From Methanobacteriota archaeon (GTDB lineage: Archaea > Thermoplasmatota > Poseidoniia > Poseidoniales > Thalassarchaeaceae), in assembly GCA_029977385.1 (NCBI GenBank), contig JAPOKZ010000004.1, positions 1 to 43,835 of the forward strand: a stretch of DNA of 43,835 bases. Reading direction: 5' to 3'. Positions 13,648 to 28,948 of the stretch are shown here, piece by piece. How positions within the stretch are numbered: the first letter of the stretch is position 1; every line of letters starts with the position of its first letter. The notes below the pieces were generated by a model, which was not told the DNA's origin, did no database searches, and saw nothing but the letters and a program-made list of their open reading frames with translations. The translations under genes were made by a program, and so were the position numbers.

Positions 13648-16287
13648 CTAGAAATCGAATAAGTTACTCTGTCTATTACCCTTGAGCAGGTTCTTTTCGT
13701 CCCATCCAAAGGCCTCAGTGACTCGTCCTAGTGACTTGGCGAGTCGCTCAGCGTAGTATTTCCTATCATACTCGGGTGGATCCCCTCCTATCTCATCTAC
13801 CAACCATGCCCTTACCCCTAGCTTCTTCTCACCCTCATCAGGCTCAGTTACGATGTATCCTACCTTCATTCCAGGAGTGAACTGTAGACCTTCAGCAATC
13901 CTCTGCTTGGCCGCTCTGACGTAAGGAAGTCCATCCTCATTTTTGTATACACTGAAGTCCCATTCCTCCTTCTTGCTGTTCCACTTCCCTTTGCAGGACC
14001 TACTGATTACAAGTTGAGATGTTTCTACTTCTCCGGCCTTTACTCTATCAATTACAGACTTGGTCATGTCGACAGCACCAATTTCGTTTCCATCCAGTAT
14101 CATCTCGAACATCTGTGTCATCGTATCAGAGAGGAGTTGGAAGGAGTCGGTGCGTCTTACCTCATACCCTCTAATCAGCATCTCCTCTCTGGGCCATACG
14201 ACTCTACCTACGTAGCGCTTCTTCGCTCCGTGGCTGAAGAAGGAGGAGAGCGCGGTTTCGAACTCGAGTTCGGCTCCCTCTCTGGTAAATCGTTCGGCTA
14301 GTGACTTTCCAAACTCGAGGGTCGAGCTCCTTGCTTTCTCCCAACCCTCAAGCTCCACGCCTCCCAGTGGTTTGTTCATGGGGGCCTCTTCCACTGGTGC
14401 GATTACGAAAATTGAGTCGGTGTCGGAATACACCACATCATCTCCATCTTCCTCTACTTTGGATATTATCTCCTTGATGTTATGTCGTGCCCACTCCGTG
14501 ATACTCGCACCGAGGCTCGGATGAGTGAATCTGTAGAAGTTCGATGCGAAGACTCCGTAGAAAGAGTTCATCAAGATCTTTACAGCGTACTGTAACTGAT
14601 CTTGAAGGAAGGCCTCGGCTTCATCACCTTCTTCGTTCGCCTTCTCGAGGGCGGCCTTGTGCCTGTCCCTACTATCCATCAGACCCTGGAGGAGTTGTGG
14701 GACTAGGCCTAGCCTTTCATCCTTGGAGATGTATCTTGTGTTTGTGACTGGCGATACGCTATGAGAATATTCTTCGCTCCCATCACGAACCAAGGTGGTA
14801 GAGCATATGTTGTTAGATATCATTATCGAGGGATACATCGATTTGAAGTCAAGAACTACTACCCAAGGCTTGACTCCCGGATCAACCTCATGCACATAAC
14901 CTCCGGCTATCTTATCCTGCTTCCTTGGGCCTTGGTTAGTATTCGGAACTGCAACACCACTCCTATCCGCTAGCCGAATGACTAGTGAGTCTATCCAACG
15001 GCTAGTTGTACTGGTCGCTGCAATATCTACAGTAGTCAGAGAAACCGATGCTAGAGCCTCCTTCCTAGCTATTGATTTCATCTTCTCCAGAATGTCTAGG
15101 GGCAGCACTGTGTCACGCACACAGTATTCCAGTACCTCATCCGGTCTGGAGGCCCATTCTTCGTCCATCTTGCTGGCATCGATATCCATCTTCTGCATCT
15201 CCTCATCATCGGGCCACAGGAGTTGCGATACATACCTCAGGGACTCTCGCTGAGGCCTTAGGGTCTGTCTTGCCTGCCACCATGCATCGAGAGGAATTCT
15301 GCCCTTTATCGTCCAGGTTCTGTTCTGCTCCCTGTTTGGAAAAATTCTACCTGGCTTCCTCCATCCACGCTTGGTCTCTGCCTCATTTATTGGGACTCTG
15401 CCCCATCCTAGAAGAGTCGCCCGGTCCATCTCAGATTCCGTATCGATATACTCGGACCTCTCCTCCATCCTAGGAAGATCGAAGTTATCGATATTGTAGC
15501 CAGTTATGAAGTCGGGATCCTCTGTTCTGACCACTTCTGTGAGTCGCTCCAATATTTCGGTCTCGGCACCAGTTATCGGGTATTCCTTCCTTTCTCCGTA
15601 TCTGTCCACCACAGCTGCGGCGCATAATATCGTGTTGTCCGCGATACTCGTCTCGAGGTCGAAAGACATGGTGACGAAGGGTGCTGGGAACGGCTCGGTC
15701 CTGCTCAAGCCACTGAGGTCACAAGATATCACCATGTCGAGAGGGTATATTCCCGAGCCTCCAACTTCTTTTATCCTCTTCTCGGCAGTCTCCCGATTGG
15801 TATTCTCGGGAGTCTTTGCTTCCTCGGGAGCCCGATCGCCTGCCCAGAGTACTTCTCCACTCATCGCAATGTGAGGTCCTAGATCTAGATCTAGAAGGAG
15901 CCTCTGAAAAAATAGGATATCCGCACTGGTCACTCTCCATCCTTGCTCGGACAGTGCCTTCCTCACCCCTCTGACCTTAGTGGTGTCTCTGACGTAGACT
16001 CGATAGTGAGGCCTAACGACTCCGTCTTGGGATAGTTTCATTCCACTTGACTCGGGCTCTCCCTGAACGTCCCTCACGGAAGAGACGTTTCCCAGAGACT
16101 CGGGTTCAACTCTGCTGCCATCTGATTTTGGATCAGATATCTCGACATAAGGTCGGAGGCCATTTACTAGGAGCATAGACGAGTGTCCTGATCTAGACCT
16201 ACACCACAGTTCGATTACCGTCTTTGGCTCTTCTGGCCATGCTCTATTATCTCCCGAAACGATGCAGACTTCATCCTCCCACTGCAT
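13648..16287 (-). CDS. polB: Family B DNA polymerase
   Basis: Exo I DLETS, Exo II YNIDNFD, Exo III YCVRD; polymerase motifs DFKSMYPS, KILMNSFYG, YSDTDS; C-terminal PIP box QSNLFDF. GGTGA SD before ATG 16287. Confidence 0.96.
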   Translation of the reverse strand: MQWEDEVCIVSGDNRAWPEEPKTVIELWCRSRSGHSSMLLVNGLRPYVEISDPKSDGSRVEPESLGNVSSVRDVQGEPESSGMKLSQDGVVRPHYRVYVRDTTKVRGVRKALSEQGWRVTSADILFFQRLLLDLDLGPHIAMSGEVLWAGDRAPEEAKTPENTNRETAEKRIKEVGGSGIYPLDMVISCDLSGLSRTEPFPAPFVTMSFDLETSIADNTILCAAAVVDRYGERKEYPITGAETEILERLTEVVRTEDPDFITGYNIDNFDLPRMEERSEYIDTESEMDRATLLGWGRVPINEAETKRGWRKPGRIFPNREQNRTWTIKGRIPLDAWWQARQTLRPQRESLRYVSQLLWPDDEEMQKMDIDASKMDEEWASRPDEVLEYCVRDTVLPLDILEKMKSIARKEALASVSLTTVDIAATSTTSRWIDSLVIRLADRSGVAVPNTNQGPRKQDKIAGGYVHEVDPGVKPWVVVLDFKSMYPSIMISNNICSTTLVRDGSEEYSHSVSPVTNTRYISKDERLGLVPQLLQGLMDSRDRHKAALEKANEEGDEAEAFLQDQLQYAVKILMNSFYGVFASNFYRFTHPSLGASITEWARHNIKEIISKVEEDGDDVVYSDTDSIFVIAPVEEAPMNKPLGGVELEGWEKARSSTLEFGKSLAERFTREGAELEFETALSSFFSHGAKKRYVGRVVWPREEMLIRGYEVRRTDSFQLLSDTMTQMFEMILDGNEIGAVDMTKSVIDRVKAGEVETSQLVISRSCKGKWNSKKEEWDFSVYKNEDGLPYVRAAKQRIAEGLQFTPGMKVGYIVTEPDEGEKKLGVRAWLVDEIGGDPPEYDRKYYAERLAKSLGRVTEAFGWDEKNLLKGNRQSNLFDF

Positions 16288-16425
16288 GACTTCACCCGCA
16301 TTCCGCACTCAGACCGACTGCCTTACCCTACGTAATCGTGAGGGGCCATAACCATGCCGGGGGGGTCTCCAGCGGAACCGTTGAAAGCCGAGGCGGTCCC
16401 CTGCACAATAATCGGGGTGCGCGCG

Positions 16426-20036: not shown

Positions 20037-20594
20037 ATGCGAAGGATGTGGGCGCTTCTACTGGTCTGTCTGGTATCTTTGCCGGTCAGCGCGTCGCAAG
20101 GAGGCGTCAATGAGTCGATTTCTCTCGAAGGTACCAGCATCAAGGCGTTGAATTACGACGATGTAATGGGAACCAGAATCGGCACTTCTGATGGCGAATT
20201 TAGTTTGAATCTGGTGATGGATGATGGGGCTAACGTCTCTGAAATAAGATGGATCACCCAAGTTTGCATCAACTCTGGGGTTTGCTACCCCCCTCAAGAG
20301 AGTCGGATGGAACTAGTTGGTGATGGATCATTCGAATCTCATATTGATACTGAGCCCGGTTACTCATACATCAACTGGAAATTCATATTCGAGATGGAGA
20401 ACGGTTCTGAGTCCCATGTACCAGATGTTGGCTTCGGTTGGAGAGTCTGGTCCGACTGCTGGTTCGACAATGGCACGTGGGGGGGATCCGAGACATACTG
20501 CCGAGAGGAGGGCGATAGTGCCCTTCCGGGTTTCACTATTTCGTTGCTCATTGCATCGACTACTATGGCAGCCTTGATGGCAAGACGGGAATGA
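20037..20594 (+). CDS. Small secreted protein with PGF-CTERM-like archaeosortase anchor
   Basis: Signal peptide MRRMWALLLVCLVSLPVSA. C-terminal LPGF followed by a hydrophobic helix and RR. Confidence 0.75.
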   Translation: MRRMWALLLVCLVSLPVSASQGGVNESISLEGTSIKALNYDDVMGTRIGTSDGEFSLNLVMDDGANVSEIRWITQVCINSGVCYPPQESRMELVGDGSFESHIDTEPGYSYINWKFIFEMENGSESHVPDVGFGWRVWSDCWFDNGTWGGSETYCREEGDSALPGFTISLLIASTTMAALMARRE

Positions 20595-21280
20595 GTGGGC
20601 TCATGAGTTACAGCGATGTTGAGCCGGGATTCATCCCGCTTGAATACTCGGAGGTGGAAGAGGCAGAGATGCTTCGAATTGCGAAATCTTACTATGACCA
20701 AATGAACTCAAGGAGGACCACGCGTCACTTCTCCAACAAGAAAGTACCTAGAGAGTTGGTAGAATTAGCAATCAGGACTGCCAGCACAGCTCCCTCAGGG
20801 GCGCATCTCCAACCCTGGACTTTCGTGGCGATTTCAAACAGCGAGCTGAAGTCAAGGATAAGAGAGGCGGCAGAAGAAGAAGAGAGAAGATTCTACCAAG
20901 ACAGAATTCCGGAAGAGTGGGAGGAGGTCCTATCGCCTCTGGGAACAGACCACGTGAAGAGGCACATCACAGACGCACCTTGGGTTGTTGTACTATTCAG
21001 ACAATCAAAGAGGAAAAGAGGAGAGGGTATGGCTCCCACATACTACTCTCAAGAGTCCTGTGGGATCGCTGCTGGGATGTTCATCTCAGCAGTTCACAAT
21101 ATGGGCTTAGCGACCCTCCCCCACACTCCTTCCCCAATGGGTTTCCTTAGGGAAATCCTAGGACGCCCAGAGCATGAGCACGCAATGCTGCTGCTTCCAG
21201 TTGGTTATCCAGCAGAGGATGCAAGGGTACCAAATCTGGAAAGGAAGAGGCTCGAAGAGGTGTCCGAGTTCTGGGATTGA
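20591..21280 (+). CDS. Nitroreductase-fold FMN protein, iodotyrosine deiodinase (IYD)-like
   Basis: RRTTRHFS, TAPSGAHLQPWTFV, lid IREAAEEEERRFY...LGTDHVK, HTPSPMGFLREILGRP, LLLPVGYPA...VPNLERK. Confidence 0.85.
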   Translation: MSGLMSYSDVEPGFIPLEYSEVEEAEMLRIAKSYYDQMNSRRTTRHFSNKKVPRELVELAIRTASTAPSGAHLQPWTFVAISNSELKSRIREAAEEEERRFYQDRIPEEWEEVLSPLGTDHVKRHITDAPWVVVLFRQSKRKRGEGMAPTYYSQESCGIAAGMFISAVHNMGLATLPHTPSPMGFLREILGRPEHEHAMLLLPVGYPAEDARVPNLERKRLEEVSEFWD

Positions 21281-21309
21281 TTAAGTATCTCAGATTTTCA
21301 GGATGTTCC

Positions 21310-22542
21310 ATGAAGAGCAACAGAAGGAATGCCTTAGCGATTCTGCTAGCCCTACTAATGACCGCCTCTGTCCTATCCGGTTGCTCCGGAACTGACGAGG
21401 AATTGGATGACGAGCCCAAGGAATTGGAAGACTGGAGCGTTTTCCTAGTCCAGAGTTCTTCGGATCTTCCAACTTGCGATATCGTAACCGACGGAAGGCT
21501 CTACTATGTATCTTCAGAGTCAGGATTCCATGCATGCTCGAACGGTGCATGGCAGTCCATCGAACTAACTGGGCCCCCTGGGCCTCAGGGACCAGCTGGG
21601 GCTGACGGAGCAGACGGATCGATAGGGCCAGCAGGACCTGCAGGTGCTGACGGAGCAGATGGATCGATAGGTCCGTCTGGGCCTCCTGGGGCTGACGGGG
21701 CTGACGGGGATGATGGTACCTCTTTCACAATTATTGGAACCGTGGAGGAAACCACCGACCTGGGAGAGATATACATCGGAGAATCAGGAGACGCGTTCCT
21801 AGTTAACTCGACCGTTCACATCCATGTCTGGAGTGGGTCCGAATGGATAGATCTGGGGAACATCTCGGGACCACAGGGCCCGTCTGGGGAATCTGGTCCA
21901 GAGGGACCTATCGGTACAGAGGGTCCTCCCGGTGCTGATGGACTCTATGCACTCATCGACAGCACTGCATTGTCGACAGGAAGCGCAAACTGCCCAATGG
22001 GCGGAAATGCTGTGAGAATAGGGATGGATGATAACGGTGACGGGAATCTTGATCCTCTCGAGGTAGACCAGACCTTGTACGTCTGCAATGGAGTAAACGG
22101 TGTAGACGGAAATGACGGGACCGATGGCGCAGATGGGACCGATGGCGCAGATGGGACCGATGGCGCAGATGGCGCAGATGGCGCAGATGGTTCAATGCCC
22201 GTGGTGATGGAGATGACGGTCACCGTTTCGAGCATGGATTTCTACATTGATTCTATTCAACAGGCGGATGTAACACTATACAGGGGGTTCACCTACACCT
22301 TTGACCAATCTGCTTCTAGTAACTCCGCACACCCATTCAGACTGTCTACCACTAGTGATGGGACTCATGGAGGAGGAACCCAGTACACTGACGGGGTGAC
22401 GTATACGGGGACTCAGGGGTCGAGCGGCCTAATGACCTTCACAGTTCCATTGGATGCACCTGACACTCTGTACTACTACTGCCAGAACCACGGAAGCATG
22501 GGCGGAGAAATAACAATTCAGTCCCTAGGAAGCGTTTCCTGA
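21310..22542 (+). CDS. Collagen-like surface lipoprotein with C-terminal cupredoxin-like domain
   Basis: RR plus hydrophobic stretch and lipobox LSGC, three G-X-Y runs, a CPMGG...DDNGDGNLD...VCNG module, and C-terminal HPF...YYYCQNHGSM. Confidence 0.85.
   Translation: MKSNRRNALAILLALLMTASVLSGCSGTDEELDDEPKELEDWSVFLVQSSSDLPTCDIVTDGRLYYVSSESGFHACSNGAWQSIELTGPPGPQGPAGADGADGSIGPAGPAGADGADGSIGPSGPPGADGADGDDGTSFTIIGTVEETTDLGEIYIGESGDAFLVNSTVHIHVWSGSEWIDLGNISGPQGPSGESGPEGPIGTEGPPGADGLYALIDSTALSTGSANCPMGGNAVRIGMDDNGDGNLDPLEVDQTLYVCNGVNGVDGNDGTDGADGTDGADGTDGADGADGADGSMPVVMEMTVTVSSMDFYIDSIQQADVTLYRGFTYTFDQSASSNSAHPFRLSTTSDGTHGGGTQYTDGVTYTGTQGSSGLMTFTVPLDAPDTLYYYCQNHGSMGGEITIQSLGSVS
21598..21687 (+). 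repeat. Two imperfect 45-bp tandem units in the collagen region
   Basis: Units start at 21598 and 21643, both encoding GADGADGSIGPxGPx. Confidence 0.85.
22117..22188 (+). repeat. Perfect coding tandem repeat (GGGACCGATGGCGCAGAT)x3 + (GGCGCAGAT)x2
   Basis: Read directly from the sequence; encodes GTDGAD x3 and GAD x2. Confidence 0.92.
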
Positions 22543-23490
22543 TTCGCTATTCTCTTCTGGTGGGAAGACGAAGACAAGTGCGATTCCAGACCCCACGACC
22601 AATGCACCCCCCAGCCAATCTGCGAGGGAAAGCGATTCACCGAATAGGAAGAAGCCGTAGAAAGTTGCAACGAGTACCGTAAGGTAGGAAAATGCACTAA
22701 CCCATGCAGCATTGGCCTTATGGTATGCCATGGTGATTCCTAATTGTCCCCCTCCGGCACCGATTCCGATACCAACTAGAGCTGCAATAGTGTTTGAGTC
22801 AATCTCGGAGATATTTGGTACGGACTGGACTATGCTTCCAGCAACAGAGAAGGCTGCGAACCAGAATATGACGGTAGCTGGAGAGTCGGTCTTTCTGAGT
22901 TCCCTGACGTACATGTATGCCAATGCCGCGAAGAATCCTGAACCTAGAGCAAGAAGAGCGTTAGGATCTACAGTTCCTACCTCTGGAGAGACAATTAGAA
23001 CAATTCCAGCGAAAGCGGTCAGTACCAGCGTTGTCACCGACGGGGAAACCCTCTCGGCCAATATCCTCCCAGAAAGTAGAGCAACGAATAGAGGACCAGT
23101 GTACTGGAGAGTTACAGCCTGACCAATTGGAATCCTTCCAAGTGCGGTGAAGTAGAGAATCATGGCAATTAGCCCTACTACGCACCTAAGCAACATGGTC
23201 CTGCGATCGTTTACCTTCAGACTAATTCCCTTAGAAGCGGCGAAGGCTGCAACTGCAAAGGCGATAACGGCTGATCTGACCATGATTATCATCCAAACAT
23301 CAGTGTGGTCGCTAGTCCATTTGACTAATGCATTCATGGTCCCAAAGCAGATGCTTCCAAAGATCATCCAGATGACCGCTGCCTTGGGGGAGTCGGGCAT
23401 CCTTTCCTCGGTTACGAAAGACGACAGGTCCGGACCTTCAGTTTTGTAGAAAATCTCATCTAGACCCCTACCAAGACCACTTTTAGACAT
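22525..23490 (-). CDS. EamA/DMT-family membrane transporter with N-terminal ParB-like LGRGL peptide
   Basis: About 10 hydrophobic helices with DMT motifs (LLRCVVG, ALGRIPIGQAVTLQYTGPLFVALL, LAERV, AYHKANAAWVSAFSY, FLFGE). In-frame N-terminus MSKSGLGRGLDEIF begins 3 nt after the parA stop. Confidence 0.9.
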   Translation of the reverse strand: MSKSGLGRGLDEIFYKTEGPDLSSFVTEERMPDSPKAAVIWMIFGSICFGTMNALVKWTSDHTDVWMIIMVRSAVIAFAVAAFAASKGISLKVNDRRTMLLRCVVGLIAMILYFTALGRIPIGQAVTLQYTGPLFVALLSGRILAERVSPSVTTLVLTAFAGIVLIVSPEVGTVDPNALLALGSGFFAALAYMYVRELRKTDSPATVIFWFAAFSVAGSIVQSVPNISEIDSNTIAALVGIGIGAGGGQLGITMAYHKANAAWVSAFSYLTVLVATFYGFFLFGESLSLADWLGGALVVGSGIALVFVFPPEENSESGNAS

Positions 23491-23493
23491 AAT

Positions 23494-24444
23494 TCAGAGA
23501 CTCCATCTGTGTTGAAGCTCTGTTGCAATATCCTGGTAATCTTTACCGCCAGGGCTAGAAGGATCGTGTAGATGGATAGGAATCCCGTGACTCGGTGCCT
23601 CGGCGAGTCTTACGTTCCTCCTGATCGCTGGCCTGACGACTAAGTCAGGGAAGTTTTCCAAGACCTCTCCTGCAACCTGCTTGTTCAGAAGTGTCTGGGA
23701 GTGCATCGTCAACAGTACTCCATCCACTCCTAATCTCTCGTTGAGTAGGCTCCTTACTTCTCTGATGGTCCCTGATAGCAAAGCTAGTCCCTCAAGAGCG
23801 AAGTATTCCGTCTGGACAGGGACTAGAATTCCATCAGAGGCCACTAGTGCGTTGATTGTTACCAGACCTAGTGAAGGAGGGGTGTCGATTAGAACCAGAT
23901 CGTAATGTGCTAGAAGTGGTTGAAGTGCCTCCTTCATTCTCTTCTCCCTTCCAAGCTGTCTCATCATCTCCTGCTCTAGTCCGATAAGGCTCCTGTCTCC
24001 GACTATGATGTGTAGGTTCTCTACGGCAGTTGCATGCCTGGAGTCTACTGCTGTCTCTGGACTAAGGATTAGGTCCCTTGTGGTATTCTTGACTTTGCTC
24101 TTATCCACTCCTAGACCTGTGGCACAGTTCCCCTGTGAATCTGAGTCAATAACCAGGACTCTGAACCCTCTAAGCGCAATCTGAGCTGCGACGTTGATTA
24201 CTGTGGTAGTTTTGCCCACCCCTCCCTTCTGATTAATCACGGTAACTACTCTGCCCCTCCCTGGGGGAGTGGGCAGGGAAGTTGGGAGTTCCATCGCGCT
24301 TTTAGTCCGCGAAAAACTGACTTCCTCGATTGAGTCAAGAGGTTCGGCTAGAGTTTCGTCCTCTTCTTCCATGAATTCGACATCGATAATTAGTGGAGCC
24401 TTGCCGACTTCTGGAAGACTTTGGTCACCATCCTTCGAAGCCAT
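23494..24444 (-). CDS. parA: ParA/Soj-family ATPase with acidic N-terminal extension
   Basis: INQKGGVGKTTT, IDSDSQGN, IDTPPSLGLVTINAL, VPVQTEYFALEGL, IRRNVRLAEAPSHGIP. Confidence 0.93.
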   Translation of the reverse strand: MASKDGDQSLPEVGKAPLIIDVEFMEEEDETLAEPLDSIEEVSFSRTKSAMELPTSLPTPPGRGRVVTVINQKGGVGKTTTVINVAAQIALRGFRVLVIDSDSQGNCATGLGVDKSKVKNTTRDLILSPETAVDSRHATAVENLHIIVGDRSLIGLEQEMMRQLGREKRMKEALQPLLAHYDLVLIDTPPSLGLVTINALVASDGILVPVQTEYFALEGLALLSGTIREVRSLLNERLGVDGVLLTMHSQTLLNKQVAGEVLENFPDLVVRPAIRRNVRLAEAPSHGIPIHLHDPSSPGGKDYQDIATELQHRWSL

Positions 24445-24513: not shown

Positions 24514-26604
24514 TCACTCGCTAGGTCTGTCGATGAGCCACCAAATTACCATCTCTCCAGTCTCCGAGTCCATGGCCAAATCAACTGACATTTCTCGTCC
24601 GGCTTCTTCCCATTCCCTAACTGCGTTCATTGTTACCTTTCCATCTCCCAAGTCACCTGGAAGGAGGCTCAGGACCTCATTATCCTCTGTGACGGATAGC
24701 CTGTAACCAACCTCAGCTTGGAGGTTCCAAGATTCTCCGGACTGGATGTATGGAGACAGGGCAGGATACCTCTCGGGTTCCAGAATCCTTGATTCCAGTA
24801 AAGAGAGAGTCTGAGTACTAGGGATAGAGTCTCTATTCCAAGTCACCTCTCCCCTATCATTAGAGCCCGTTGAAATCATCTCACAGCCTTCAGATGATCT
24901 CCGAAGTACCAGCCAACCAGAGTCATCGTCATCGTCAACCCAAGACATGTTCCATTCCGGTTCAGAAGTAGGCCTCGACCAAGAGGCCCTCCAGATATAT
25001 CCTCCAGATTCTACAGCCAAGGTTGCCTGAGTATCCGGATATCTAGATTTGAGGCAAGCTACTGCCTCCTCCATATCGAACTGTCTAATTTCTGTTTCGT
25101 CCCACATGGAGTCAACCCAGTTCCTCTTTGTTGATGTGCCTGGCCTATCCTCACCATCTGCGGGACTCCCTGGATAGTTCCTTTCCCAATCGATTTCACT
25201 ACTTCCGATAGTAGAAGAAATTCTGGAGAATGTCATGCTAATACTGAGAGTTCCTTCGGGCAGGAGTTCATCCGATAGGGTGCTAACTAGGAAGTCGCAA
25301 TCGTTTGTCTGGAGTTCCTTGTCCAGCCTTATGTCAGCAACCTGCTTGACAGGCCAAGGACTCCCATCCTTCAGGTGCAGTAGAATTGTAGCATGCCCAT
25401 AGCACCTTCCAATTTCCTCATGATCAAGATAAACAGGATACACTAGACCATGAGTATCATCCCTGAACTCCTTCTTCACTTCCCATTTCCAATCGGAATT
25501 CCAGCCTAGATCTGGATCGGAAGAACTCGCTCCCTCCTTGATCACGGCCTCTCCAAAGAATTCGTGTAGCTCAATTGGGGTTAGTGGAAAGGAAAGGGTG
25601 GGTAAGAGAGCACCCAAACCTCCGATTCCCTCAGAGTCGTAGGTTACCGTCCTAGCATTCGTTGTTACCGAATCCACGTCGCTGAACGAGATTGAGGTAT
25701 CGGTCCTCTTCACCTCTGTCTTCTCCAGTTCCACCCAGCTGGTTGACTCCATACTCAGGTCATTTCCGGACATTACCCAACGAATATTCCCACAGTCTGT
25801 GTTCGCATCGTCCCTCCAAGTTCTTCCCTCGAAATCAACGTCTAGATCGAGTCTTATTCCCTTCTCTGCAGACAAGAAACCTGTTCTTCCTAGGCTATCT
25901 GTAGTTTCTACTGCTCCCGAATTAGGTCCTTCGGTTACTGATACCAAACCAGTACCACCCATATCCATCGACACCTCCCCACATGCCGGTTCAAGAATCC
26001 CACCACTAGAGTCCCTCACCACAGAGAGCATCTCCTCCCCGTCTATGCTTATTCTCGAGTCGATTACCTGGAAGTCCATCCTATCTCCATACCTCAACTT
26101 CGCTACCTCGAAACCCGAACTACGTTGTAGGAAAACGGTAGTTGCTGCCCCCACGAGGATGACCACAACTATGATCGCTGCTAGGGCCTTCCATTTGTCT
26201 CCCAATGAAGAAATAGAAGGCATAGAGATGACCAAAGAAGGCTGATCGTCCTCTGCCACTATTACCGATTCAGCATCCCCGGATATCTCAGATTCCGTTG
26301 TTAAGACCTCGGCCTCGACAACCTCGGCTTCCACGATGTTATCGATTTTAGATAGGACCTGATTCACCTTTACTCGTGTATCATCTGGTTCTTCATCCAT
26401 GACTAGAGCGTCCTCTTGCTCCCAATCGTCTTCTTCGGAAATTTCTACAGGCTCCTCAATCACCCCTGCATCCTCAAGTATTCTATCTACCAATTCCGAT
26501 TTCTTTCCCGAGACAAGTAGTCCCCGCTTCTTGCACATTTCCCTAAGCTTCGCAACCGTGTTCGAGGTAAGCGACTCTCTGTCAATTGAATCGTCTTCGG
26601 GCAT
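24514..26604 (-). CDS. SAP-domain single-pass membrane protein
   Basis: N-terminal SAP motif LTSNTVAKLREMCKKRGLLVSGKKSELVDRI, acidic linker, one TM helix (ALAAIIVVVILVGAATTVFL), then about 535 aa of acidic, Trp/Cys-containing sequence. Confidence 0.82.
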   Translation of the reverse strand: MPEDDSIDRESLTSNTVAKLREMCKKRGLLVSGKKSELVDRILEDAGVIEEPVEISEEDDWEQEDALVMDEEPDDTRVKVNQVLSKIDNIVEAEVVEAEVLTTESEISGDAESVIVAEDDQPSLVISMPSISSLGDKWKALAAIIVVVILVGAATTVFLQRSSGFEVAKLRYGDRMDFQVIDSRISIDGEEMLSVVRDSSGGILEPACGEVSMDMGGTGLVSVTEGPNSGAVETTDSLGRTGFLSAEKGIRLDLDVDFEGRTWRDDANTDCGNIRWVMSGNDLSMESTSWVELEKTEVKRTDTSISFSDVDSVTTNARTVTYDSEGIGGLGALLPTLSFPLTPIELHEFFGEAVIKEGASSSDPDLGWNSDWKWEVKKEFRDDTHGLVYPVYLDHEEIGRCYGHATILLHLKDGSPWPVKQVADIRLDKELQTNDCDFLVSTLSDELLPEGTLSISMTFSRISSTIGSSEIDWERNYPGSPADGEDRPGTSTKRNWVDSMWDETEIRQFDMEEAVACLKSRYPDTQATLAVESGGYIWRASWSRPTSEPEWNMSWVDDDDDSGWLVLRRSSEGCEMISTGSNDRGEVTWNRDSIPSTQTLSLLESRILEPERYPALSPYIQSGESWNLQAEVGYRLSVTEDNEVLSLLPGDLGDGKVTMNAVREWEEAGREMSVDLAMDSETGEMVIWWLIDRPSE

Positions 26605-26735
26605 GCTCTGTGACTCAGTCCCACCCTGAGGCTTTCAATCTCTCCGACTTCATGAGCCCTCCAACGCACACTCGGCATAGAGTAACGAATTCCCGAGGGA
26701 AAGGGTTGAAGACGGTCTTTTGGGCGGCGCAGAAC

Positions 26736-27686
26736 ATGGAGCCAAGGCTAGTACTACTCTCCAGAGGTCCAGAGCTGTACAGTACCAGAAGGCTGGCTAC
26801 AGAGGCAGAGAGAGCAGGATGGATGGTTGACATCATCGATCCTCTTGCGCTAACCATCGTCGTAGATGAGGACGGCGGAAGAGTGTTCCACAAGGGATGG
26901 CCCGTAGAGTGCGAGGCCATCTTGCCTAGAATCGGCTATTCCATCACCCGCAGAGGAGTTGCGATAGTCAGGCAGTTCGAACAAACCGGAGTGATAGTAC
27001 TCAACTCGAGTCAGGGAATTCTGAGAAGTAGGGACAAGCTGGTGGCTTGCCAGATGATGGCTGAGGCTCGCGTTCCGGTTCCTATTACGGCGCACGTTGG
27101 AGCATGGGAGGACACTGATCGCGCTGTTAGGAGGGTCGGAGGAGCTCCGTGTGTCGTCAAGTCAACAGAGGGGACCCATGGCTCAGGCGTTTTTCTGGTA
27201 AACTCTTCGCCGCAGGCCAGACAACTGGTGTTCCAGATGCTTGAGAGAGGAATGAGGCCTCTGGTACAGGAGTATGTCAAGGAGTCACACGGTAGTGACG
27301 TTAGAGCACTAGTTGTTGGCGGAGAGGTTGTTGCATCGATGCGACGCAAGGCACATGGGAGCGAGTTCCGCTCGAACTTCCACCTAGGGGGGTCAGTTAC
27401 AGGAGTAGATTTGACGGAAGAGCAGAGGAGAATTGCTACACTTTCTGCAGAGACTCTGGGGCTCGAGGTGGCAGGAGTAGATATGCTCGAGTCGGACAGA
27501 GGGCCATTGGTGCTGGAAGTAAACTCCAGCCCGGGACTAGAGGGGATCGAGAGTGCAACCAAGGTAAACGTAGCAGAGAAGGTGGCAAATCACCTTCACG
27601 GGCTCTATTCCAAGAGAATAGAGAGTTCAGGAGATTCTCAGTTCCCCATCGGTTCCAGCGGAAACGAGTCCGAGCACGCTCTGTGA
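26736..27686 (+). CDS. rimK: RimK-family ATP-grasp alpha-L-glutamate ligase
   Basis: LLSRGPELYSTRRL, ILPRIG, SRDKL, GTHGSGV, VQEYV, FRSNFHLGG, GVDMLES, LEVNSSPGLEGIE. Confidence 0.9.
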   Translation: MEPRLVLLSRGPELYSTRRLATEAERAGWMVDIIDPLALTIVVDEDGGRVFHKGWPVECEAILPRIGYSITRRGVAIVRQFEQTGVIVLNSSQGILRSRDKLVACQMMAEARVPVPITAHVGAWEDTDRAVRRVGGAPCVVKSTEGTHGSGVFLVNSSPQARQLVFQMLERGMRPLVQEYVKESHGSDVRALVVGGEVVASMRRKAHGSEFRSNFHLGGSVTGVDLTEEQRRIATLSAETLGLEVAGVDMLESDRGPLVLEVNSSPGLEGIESATKVNVAEKVANHLHGLYSKRIESSGDSQFPIGSSGNESEHAL

Positions 27687-27822: not shown

Positions 27823-27880
27823 AGAAGGGTTGAACAAAGAAGGGAGAAACAGAGAGACGGTATTCGCACCAAGAGGGAGA

Positions 27881-28948
27881 TTGGGCCAGAGGTTCGATTC
27901 TGATGATGTCGGTCTTTCTGACACGCTGCCTTCGAGATTGTACAGGATTTCAGAGCTTCAATGGCACGAATGCTGGTTACAACAGCTCCGCTCGGAAAAA
28001 AAGAGTGCGCACACCATTAGAGCATACGACGTGGCAGCTAGAGCGTTTTCAACCACCTCTCTTCCGGGAGAAGGGGCTCTGGCATGGGGGGATTCTTCCA
28101 GAATTCCAGTGAGAGATTTCCATCTCTTTGCCGATCCAAACAATGGAAGAATGGATGCTTGGATGAATGGACTCGGGGAGCTTAAGCCAGCTACCATTAA
28201 TGCAAAGATTGCTGCCCTAACCCACCTTTTGAAATGGCTCGGTCACATCGTCCCGGACTGGATACAAAGGCCATCTAGAAGTCGGTCTCTTCCGAAGACT
28301 CTGGGCAAAAGAGAGTTGGATAGACTCAGAAGGGCAATCAGCGATTCCGAAGACCCGTTAGCAATGCCCGTATCCACTCTGATGCTAGATACTGGGCTAA
28401 GGGTCTCGGAGCTTTGCGCTCTCGATATTGACGACATAGACAAGGAAGACCTATCGGCGTTGGTGATAGGTGGTAAGGGAGAGAAAGATAGAACCGTACT
28501 ATTCACGAAAAAATCGGTTGAAGTCCTGGAATCATGGGAGCCTATCAGAGAGAGTAGGATCAGGGGGAGCGAAGACTTCGGTCTTAGGGCTATGTTCGTT
28601 TCTAGCAGAGGGCGCAGAATCAACCCTCGCTCGATACAGAAGATGATGGACAGACTAGCTGATGCCGCAGACATCCCGAAGAGCAGGCTTAGCCCCCATA
28701 CACTGAGGCATACTTTCGCTACTGGCCTACTAGAGAGGGGTGCGGACCTGGTCACCATCCAGAGACTTCTAGGACATTCGAGCATAGCAACCACCAGGGT
28801 ATACCTGGAGATAGGAGATCAGACCCTCAGAGAGATTTACCACAGGGCGCAGAGGAGCCCTCCTCCTAGACTGGAATCTGAAACGAATGAGGATGAAGTT
28901 CAGGAGATGGTGGAGAAGTCGGCAGGAAGTATTCCAACGGAGCTCTAG
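27881..28948 (+). CDS. xerA: Tyrosine recombinase XerA-like
   Basis: Full catalytic set: TGLRVSE, GKG, HTLRH, LLGH, TTRVY. Start uncertain (TTG 27881 after GAGGGAG; ORF extends to 27830). Confidence 0.88.
   Translation: MGQRFDSDDVGLSDTLPSRLYRISELQWHECWLQQLRSEKKSAHTIRAYDVAARAFSTTSLPGEGALAWGDSSRIPVRDFHLFADPNNGRMDAWMNGLGELKPATINAKIAALTHLLKWLGHIVPDWIQRPSRSRSLPKTLGKRELDRLRRAISDSEDPLAMPVSTLMLDTGLRVSELCALDIDDIDKEDLSALVIGGKGEKDRTVLFTKKSVEVLESWEPIRESRIRGSEDFGLRAMFVSSRGRRINPRSIQKMMDRLADAADIPKSRLSPHTLRHTFATGLLERGADLVTIQRLLGHSSIATTRVYLEIGDQTLREIYHRAQRSPPPRLESETNEDEVQEMVEKSAGSIPTEL

Follow-up and report, generated by a model that had tools for sequence, protein, structure and literature searches.

Organisation of the locus

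The window analysed here is a stretch of 43,835 nucleotides from a Marine Group IIb (Thalassarchaeaceae) archaeon (contig JAPOKZ010000004.1, positions 1 to 43,835), in which a parA gene is directly followed by a gene that joins a short N-terminal tail with a ParB-type motif to an EamA/DMT transporter, all features of this module being encoded on the minus strand. The parA gene (23494-24444) codes for a Soj-type ATPase of 316 amino acids, termed ParA1, with a deviant Walker A motif and an acidic N-terminal extension of about 64 residues. Read directly from the sequence, its stop codon TGA (23496-23494) is separated by the three-nucleotide spacer ATT (23491-23493) from the ATG (23490-23488) that opens the downstream reading frame, and this near-abutting junction is also kept in relatives. 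The whole fusion open reading frame (ORF; 22525-23490) encodes 321 amino acids, a predicted cytoplasmic tail followed by a transporter with ten transmembrane (TM) helices; it begins with MSKSGLGRGLDEIF and reads on (MSKSGLGRGLDEIFYKTEGPDLSSFVTEERMPDSPK) without a stop into the transporter. The original prediction, made from the letters of the window, that an ORF opens three nucleotides past the parA stop and places the motif GLGRGL in frame with an EamA transporter therefore agrees with the sequence, the ORF list and the Pfam assignment.

The tail comprises codons 1-36 (23383-23490), of which the span 23401-23490 covers codons 1-30. Two motifs stand out within it. The ParA-binding-type motif GLGRGLDEIF (G5-F14, 23449-23478) is characterised by conservation, by the ratio of nonsynonymous to synonymous substitutions (dN/dS) and by the residue spacing of ParB, and the second motif GPDLSSFV (G19-V26, 23413-23436) by conservation, dN/dS and alignment with a soluble partner protein described below. 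The ATG of Met31 (23400-23398) follows directly on GAGGAAAGG, that is codons 28-30, as had been noted from the sequence, and a juxtamembrane DSP[RK] (residues 33-36, 23383-23394) is also kept in relatives that have no tail.

The body of the protein is a transporter. Pfam assigns EamA (PF00892) with an E-value of 2.1e-25 and a score of 90 bits (cut-off 28.2), the match falling into two stretches of which the first starts at residue 38 and the best covers residues 38-167; the AlphaFold2 model displays ten long helices in the DMT fold, and Foldseek returned 33 hits at E <= 1e-3 with overall TM-scores of 0.64-0.79, among them SLC35B1 (0.72/0.78), YddG (5i20, 0.64/0.70) and LicB. No substrate subfamily could be assigned with the NCBIfam equivalogs, all of which score far under their cut-offs (TIGR00950 66 versus 230, YddG 26 versus 300, RhtA 24 versus 354). 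The ParB/Srx (ParB_N) CTPase domain is not present in the fusion protein, nor are the helix-turn-helix (HTH) parS-binding and C-terminal dimerisation domains, residues 37-321 being transporter throughout; as Pfam yields EamA alone, the fusion protein is not a ParB. Residues 1-33 are modelled with a predicted local distance difference test score (pLDDT) below 50, and hydropathy together with the count of Lys and Arg residues puts the basic loops without exception on the side of the membrane where the N-terminus lies, so that the tail is predicted to be disordered and should be cytoplasmic. In the predicted disorder and the charge of its N-terminus, and in a gene that follows that of the ATPase at once, the protein has the features of an ATPase partner.

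ParA1 matches AAA_31 in Pfam (E 6.2e-54) along with CbiA/ParA-type domains, and contains the deviant Walker A motif NQKGGVGKTT and the further signature LVLIDTPPSLGL that place it within ParA/Soj. Its closest solved structures are 8ray_B (202 bits, 1.5e-58), Thermus Soj (177 bits) and Helicobacter pylori Soj (144 bits), the comparison with 1wcv giving an E-value of 4e-51, and Sulfolobus SegA scores just 52 bits. By sequence, ParA1 is a true Soj-type ParA. The loop close to its Walker B motif, D187-T-P-P-S-L192-G-L194, is the equivalent of the SLGL loop that is contacted by ParB in Myxococcus xanthus. The acidic N-terminal extension (residues 1-64; 24253-24444, minus strand) is not found in bacterial Soj and carries the motifs LPEV..APLIIDVEF.E.E and, just ahead of Walker A, P.ELP.SLPTP.GRARV.

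The ParB-type motif of the tail

In M. xanthus ParB, residues L11, L15, L18 and I19 of the ParA-binding motif are each required and R13 contributes (PMC12462528). The tail of the fusion protein reproduces this spacing, as L6-G-R8-G-L10-x-x-I13 corresponds to L11/R13/L15/L18, and F14 is likewise located at the spacing of the M. xanthus motif. In addition, GLGRGL is identical in two bacterial ParBs encoded beside parA, which start MAAKKRGLGRGLDALL and MSEDEPRKKGLGRGLSALL. The proposal of a ParB-type ParA-binding motif at the extreme N-terminus is thus substantiated both by the spacing and by the two bacterial proteins.

The tail appears to be specific to this protein family. Its profile hidden Markov model (38 positions) retrieved 34 hits at E <= 1e-3 in an exhaustive search of 1.84 billion representative proteins; the nine that match in a single N-terminal stretch are all EamA proteins or fragments of the fusion family, including a divergent member of 327 amino acids, and two of the other 25 that were examined turned out to be internal PDVSGF-type repeats in unrelated proteins. 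Against the chains of the PDB the tail profile recovered nothing meaningful and no ParB chain at E <= 10.

Conservation and selection

The nearest proteins and genome loci belong to Marine Group II archaea (Poseidoniales, Thalassarchaeaceae, MGIIb). Among the close homologs, counted as the best 120 of 823 database matches with 77-97% identity over the aligned part, 115 of the 120 listed carry the motif among residues 1-20, in 108 cases as exact GLGRGL, which argues against a chance match; the remaining five are called from a later Met. Archaeal loci account for 77 of 80 genome loci, with a ParA ortholog directly upstream in 76 and the 77th having no upstream DNA. The tail-bearing EamA type occupies 82 of 125 ParA1-bearing loci (locus L021 being included after frame correction), a number of loci that exceeds the number of distinct genomes, with two overlapping collections. 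In one sublineage (L025:4998-5957 (+), P0110, P0114, P0115) R8 is replaced by Met to give GLGMGL; gene callers then take this Met as the start, and the codons ahead of it go missing from database entries.

Among 73 complete fusion coding sequences, 59 of them distinct, L6, G7, L10 and P20 are invariant (59/59), R8 and L22 are each kept in 57, D21 in 52, and position 13 is occupied by I, V, M or L in 58. The invariant sites are encoded by four to six synonymous codons, each Leu by all six and each Gly or Pro by all four. For 29 phylogenetically independent pairs with 66-93% protein identity and dS of about 1, dN/dS calculated according to Nei-Gojobori amounts to 0.052 for GLGRGL, 0.062 for GPDLSSFV, 0.062 for DSP[RK] and 0.077 for the transporter body, with the two linkers at 0.20 and 0.52 and the tail overall at 0.155. 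At the level of amino acids, the constraint on both tail motifs thus equals that on the membrane domain, and the alignment and selection analysis that had been proposed for LGRGL speaks clearly for its conservation.

These values also bear on whether the tail is a gene-calling artefact, with Met31 as the true start and the upstream codons an untranslated leader or a spacer for translational coupling. Besides the GAGGAAAGG that precedes it in the window, such a start can draw on the close homologs, 104 of 116 scored having Met31; the residue is, however, Met in just 31 of the 59 distinct fusion genes, so that the two isoforms suggested from the window are not a conserved feature of the family. 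Moreover, purifying selection acts on the amino acids upstream of Met31 with synonymous sites near saturation, which rules out an untranslated leader or constraint on the RNA only; none of the 59 genes has a stop or frameshift in the tail codons, and where the tail has been lost, in-frame deletions have retained the start beside the parA stop. An artefact is consequently very improbable.

The soluble partner and the origin of the tail

Behind parA, the 15 most divergent ParA1 loci encode no EamA protein, but a soluble protein of 130-165 amino acids that starts ..KKGLGRGLxxLxxQxxTDLPFLxAYG, i.e. ..KKGLGRGLGDLLAQHDTDLPFLGAYG.., and of which the copy at L119:3517-3987 (-) and those of 12 other loci were aligned as family A1. 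Pfam applied to five of these soluble partners finds no family at E <= 1 and no ParB_N, and a word-index search with the partner profile retrieved 242 hits that are all unnamed or annotated as 'hypothetical'. In the predicted model the first 50 residues are disordered and followed by a confident alpha/beta sandwich, with LPLVPSDL..WG..RRL..EH as a motif of the body. Foldseek with this model gave nothing at E <= 1e-3, the best hit being the C-terminal domain of T4 MotA at 4.9e-3, and VIA-align reached a best Z of 7.8, in a range typical of unrelated folds; middling neighbours of the sandwich are YdhG/frataxin-like proteins, YjbR and the (DNA-binding) C-terminal domain of T4 MotA.

The partner and the fusion protein share their heads. 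Alignment of the two families with hhalign matches columns 1-34 of the partner with columns 1-31 of the fusion (E 2.2e-5, probability 76%) and pairs RGL..L with RGL..I and DLPFL with PDLSSF. The RGL..L..[DE]L.F head module by which the A1 family is recognised is found in the fusion protein, whose sequence does not contain the C-terminal alpha/beta domain of A1. When ParA trees are rooted with the paralog ParA2, the lineages with a soluble partner diverge first and all 86 EamA-linked rows group in one clade (FastTree support 93, IQ-TREE SH-aLRT 91). Soluble partner and EamA fusion are mutually exclusive: the 75 genomes matched by the partner profile, out of 121 from Poseidoniales, include none of the 33 with an EamA-type parA locus, and none of five partner-type genomes has an EamA ortholog at E <= 1e-5. 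Synteny near the partner slot involves a gene for a membrane-anchored protein (20037-20594 in the window) and a PUA-domain gene, with S8e and SRP19 in relatives. At one locus (G007:C11:1882-2661 (-)) ParA1 is matched in two pieces (residues 4-123 and 209-316) beside an intact soluble partner, and may be decaying or rearranged.

Its homology with the N-terminus encoded behind parA in sister lineages identifies the tail, in frame with the transporter and located where the ancestral partner started, as a head that was kept when a ParA partner was replaced. The alternatives put forward initially, a functional membrane activator or anchor of ParA or a scar left when parB was deleted and replaced, are hence partly combined. 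A remnant of a replaced partner it is, in line with the hhalign result, and a decaying scar it is not, because purifying selection on the tail motifs is as strong as on the transporter body. Nor is the replaced partner a ParB, as it belongs to no Pfam family, gives no ParB_N match and ends in an alpha/beta sandwich.

Loss of the tail and its possible targets

The tail, as the ParA-interaction module of the old partner, probably still engages a ParA ATPase. ParA1 is the likelier target, with the paralog ParA2 as a possible one. A complex prediction with two copies of ParA1 (residues 60-316), two ATP and the tail (residues 1-36) was run without controls and scored 0.23 and 0.06, where the mark is 0.32; these values are counted neither for nor against binding.

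A number of observations weigh against an essential or exclusive link between the tail and ParA1. To begin with, differing in-frame deletions of about 55-95 nucleotides have removed the tail in at least four lineages; the best trees require at least four changes of state, two to three of them forced by well-supported branches, and the deletions preserve the EamA start codon beside the parA stop. The tail-less relatives start M..DSPR, and DSP[RK] thus belongs to the transporter itself. These lineages are also without the soluble partner, and ParA1 is as constrained in them (dN/dS 0.066) as elsewhere (0.062), which argues that ParA1 does not depend on the tail. As several lineages have deleted it, coupling between tail and ParA would be accessory rather than essential. 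Furthermore, the earliest-branching EamA clade (four rows) is tail-less, and a single fusion followed by losses is therefore parsimonious, but not proven.

A hint of covariation with the tail is seen at L194 of the SLGL loop (23863-23865, minus strand), where all 61 tail-bearing ParA1 have Leu and 12 of 23 tail-less ones, from several clades, have Ile; this association comprises only two to four independent contrasts and hence cannot reach significance, and the position varies in soluble-partner lineages, too. Among the ParA1 columns that are at least 93% conserved with the tail, none is changed in at least three of the six tail-less clades. Finally, partners are conserved in genomes without ParA1, which are larger, have ParA2 alone and probably belong to MGIIa: the shortened head R[GD]LDHLMEQN.TEL.FLSAYGG is found in 27 of 27, with just the first Leu of the motif lost, which argues that most of the module is read by something besides ParA1. 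All 27 ParA1-less genomes checked (L144:2939-3448 (+), L145-L170) keep the soluble partner in the same neighbourhood, and at L144, the one locus where the flanks were read, no parA lies beside it.

Part of this evidence would fit a tail that is a retained piece of the partner, but conserved for a reason unrelated to ParA, for example as a cytoplasmic docking or autoregulatory segment of the transporter or as the binding site of another protein. Its dispensability in at least four lineages with unaffected constraint on ParA1, and the preservation of most of the module in ParA1-less genomes, favour this explanation, as does the second motif GPDLSSFV, which matches nothing in the bacterial ParB peptides that were fetched and whose conservation equals that of GLGRGL. 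On the other hand, the first motif equals the mapped ParA-binding motif in spacing and residue by residue, it is always located directly behind a Soj-type parA, and the protein that it derives from held the canonical position of a partner. Moreover, the first Leu of the motif, and with it the full L-G-R-G-L, is present in 11 of 13 partners beside ParA1 versus one of 27 in genomes without ParA1. A role unrelated to ParA is thus unlikely.

The same distribution raises the question of the second ATPase. A search of 121 Poseidoniales genomes identified ParA1 orthologs (53-96% identity) in about half of them, whereas ParA2, a Soj-like paralog of about 40% identity with the motifs KGGCGKT and DTPASLGLLTVNAL and an SLGL loop of its own, occurs in nearly all, which also weakens the case for ParA1. 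At the one locus read (L171:3753-4643 (+)), ParA2 has no adjoining partner gene and its downstream gene is convergent; in the eight genomes checked it lies about 22-74 kb from ParA1 where both are on the same contig. A tail that is functional with the unlinked ParA2 as its cognate ATPase would be in accordance with this near-ubiquity, with the missing partner gene, with the conserved N-terminal module of partners in ParA1-less genomes and with a ParA1 constraint that is independent of the tail. Against it stand the strict adjacency to ParA1, in 76 of 77 loci and with near-abutting gene ends, a first Leu of the motif that is kept with ParA1 and lost without it, and the weak covariation of L194 of ParA1 with the tail. 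ParA2 as the cognate ATPase of the tail is quite unlikely, and is at the same time a candidate reader of the module in ParA1-less genomes. Engagement of ParA1 by the tail as an accessory interaction remains the preferred explanation.

A canonical ParB was also searched for. ParB_N (PF02195) gave no match above the cut-off in five relatives and nine weak passes in the 121 genomes, with at most 31 bits and in ORFs of 140-290 amino acids, compared with 118-136 bits for bacterial ParBs; of six such loci that were fetched, none had a ParA1 match.

Neighbouring genes and RNA-library contigs

Upstream of parA, a gene (24514-26604, minus strand) encodes a protein of 696 amino acids, here designated SAP-TM. 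It starts with a SAP domain of the DNA-binding type (PF02037, E 8e-10), which an acidic linker and a single TM helix connect to a large C-terminal domain. It is located directly upstream of parA at 118 of the 125 ParA1 loci, soluble-partner lineages included, and six of the seven exceptions have no upstream DNA. As this position is kept whatever the third gene, SAP-TM and ParA1 form the conserved core with a variable third gene, and SAP-TM is probably part of the same module. The protein may be a membrane-anchored DNA binder that works with ParA, and that the SAP-TM/ParA1 core relates DNA to the membrane is speculation.

Contigs from RNA libraries of two studies cover tail codons (X1, 23286-23465; X2, 23315-23465), and a further contig (X3, 23477-23683) crosses the parA/EamA junction with just 14 nucleotides on the EamA side. 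These contigs are not evidence of expression, as strand and transcription start are not visible in them and they may originate from DNA. A promoter and terminator scan with bacterial-type models, which are not applicable to archaea, stayed at chance level.

Convergent to the EamA gene and overlapping its 3' end by 18 nucleotides, a gene on the plus strand (21277-22542) encodes a protein of 421 amino acids with collagen-like G-x-x repeats and a DUF7151 domain. The wider neighbourhood includes a RimK-type ATP-grasp ligase (26586-27686, plus strand), a tyrosine recombinase of the Phage_integrase family that is possibly Xer-like (27830-28948, plus strand) and a family-B DNA polymerase (13648-16308, minus strand).

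A possible mechanism and its implications

The ancestral gene order in Poseidoniales would have been the SAP-TM gene, parA and the gene for a small soluble partner. An EamA gene acquired by one MGIIb lineage would then have taken the place of the partner's body in frame, with about 30 codons of the partner remaining at the front. The module carried over in this way, L-G-R-G-L-x-x-hydrophobic followed by a linker and P-D-L-S-S-F, would be displayed at the cytoplasmic N-terminus of the transporter, from where it could dock, in the manner of bacterial ParB peptides, into a pocket at the interface of the ATP-sandwich dimer of nucleoid-bound ParA. The SLGL loop of one subunit would form this pocket together with H4/H6/H7 of the second subunit, and docking may stimulate ATP hydrolysis. 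The transporter could thereby be the cargo, tethered to or distributed along the nucleoid by ParA; alternatively, it could act as a membrane-fixed activator or sink for ParA. Either way, the selected tail suggests a coupling of ParA to the cell membrane.

A more far-reaching version, which is doubtful at present, holds that a partner of the centromere-binding type was replaced by a membrane anchor and that the tail-bearing transporter and SAP-TM, with its SAP domain in the cytoplasm, together turn ParA into a coupler between nucleoid and membrane. Nucleoid-bound ParA-ATP would be captured and switched off at the membrane, and the chromosome or membrane proteins would be distributed without ParB or parS. 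If true, an abundant and uncultured archaeon of the ocean would possess a ParA system that does without ParB and takes the membrane as its reference, and this would be a natural case of a 'luggage tag' that moved to new cargo.

ParA/MinD ATPases position varied cargos, and the cargo is set by the carrier of a short N-terminal activating peptide. In this respect the locus represents a natural experiment: within an archaeal lineage that is abundant worldwide, the replacement of a gene moved such a peptide off a soluble partner and onto a polytopic transporter, and selection has since maintained it through extensive divergence (dS of about 1). Should the peptide still engage ParA, membrane proteins can serve as cargo or activator of ParA, the engineering concept of 'luggage tags' that are portable is strengthened, and an entry is provided into the organisation of chromosome and cell in Poseidoniales, which are not yet cultured and are without a canonical ParB. 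The repeated natural deletions of the tail are ready-made controls. Beyond that, the analysis brings to light an uncharacterised module of three genes, for SAP-TM protein, ParA and partner, together with a new family of small proteins, and is of relevance to ParA/MinD positioning and archaeal cell biology.

Comparison with known systems

No report of a polytopic transporter that carries a ParA tag was found in the literature, nor anything on ParA in Poseidoniales or on an EamA/DMT protein that interacts with ParA, in a coverage outside of which lie subscription journals and supplements. Partners of ParA/MinD ATPases carry a charged, disordered N-terminus as an ATPase-specific tag and bind their cargo with the rest of the protein (PMC10241942), Haloferax HpaB being an archaeal example of a partner with such an N-terminal tag (PMC13722703). 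The ParB peptide of M. xanthus, for its part, is described as docking on the Walker-B-proximal loop L150-G151-L152 and on H4/H6/H7 of the other subunit (PMC12462528).

The fusion protein resembles bacterial ParB/Spo0J in its motif, L-G-R/K-G-L-x-x-hydrophobic, with the spacing described above, in the extreme N-terminal and disordered location of the motif and in its position directly downstream of a Soj-type parA. It is unlike ParB/Spo0J in that the carrier is an EamA/DMT transporter of ten TM helices without CTPase, HTH and dimerisation domains, that the tail contains the second motif GPDLSSFV and that the host is an archaeon. From McdB, PomX, ParG and HpaB it differs in its carrier, as these are soluble proteins that bind DNA, carboxysomes or scaffolds (PMC10241942, PMC13722703). 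Sulfolobus SegAB likewise combines an archaeal ATPase of the ParA type with a small downstream partner, but ParA1 scores far higher with bacterial Soj (202 and 177 bits) than with SegA (52 bits). The soluble partner A1, finally, shares with the fusion protein the slot behind parA and the homologous head GLGRGL..DL.F, and is distinguished from it by its body, a soluble alpha/beta sandwich in place of a membrane transporter.

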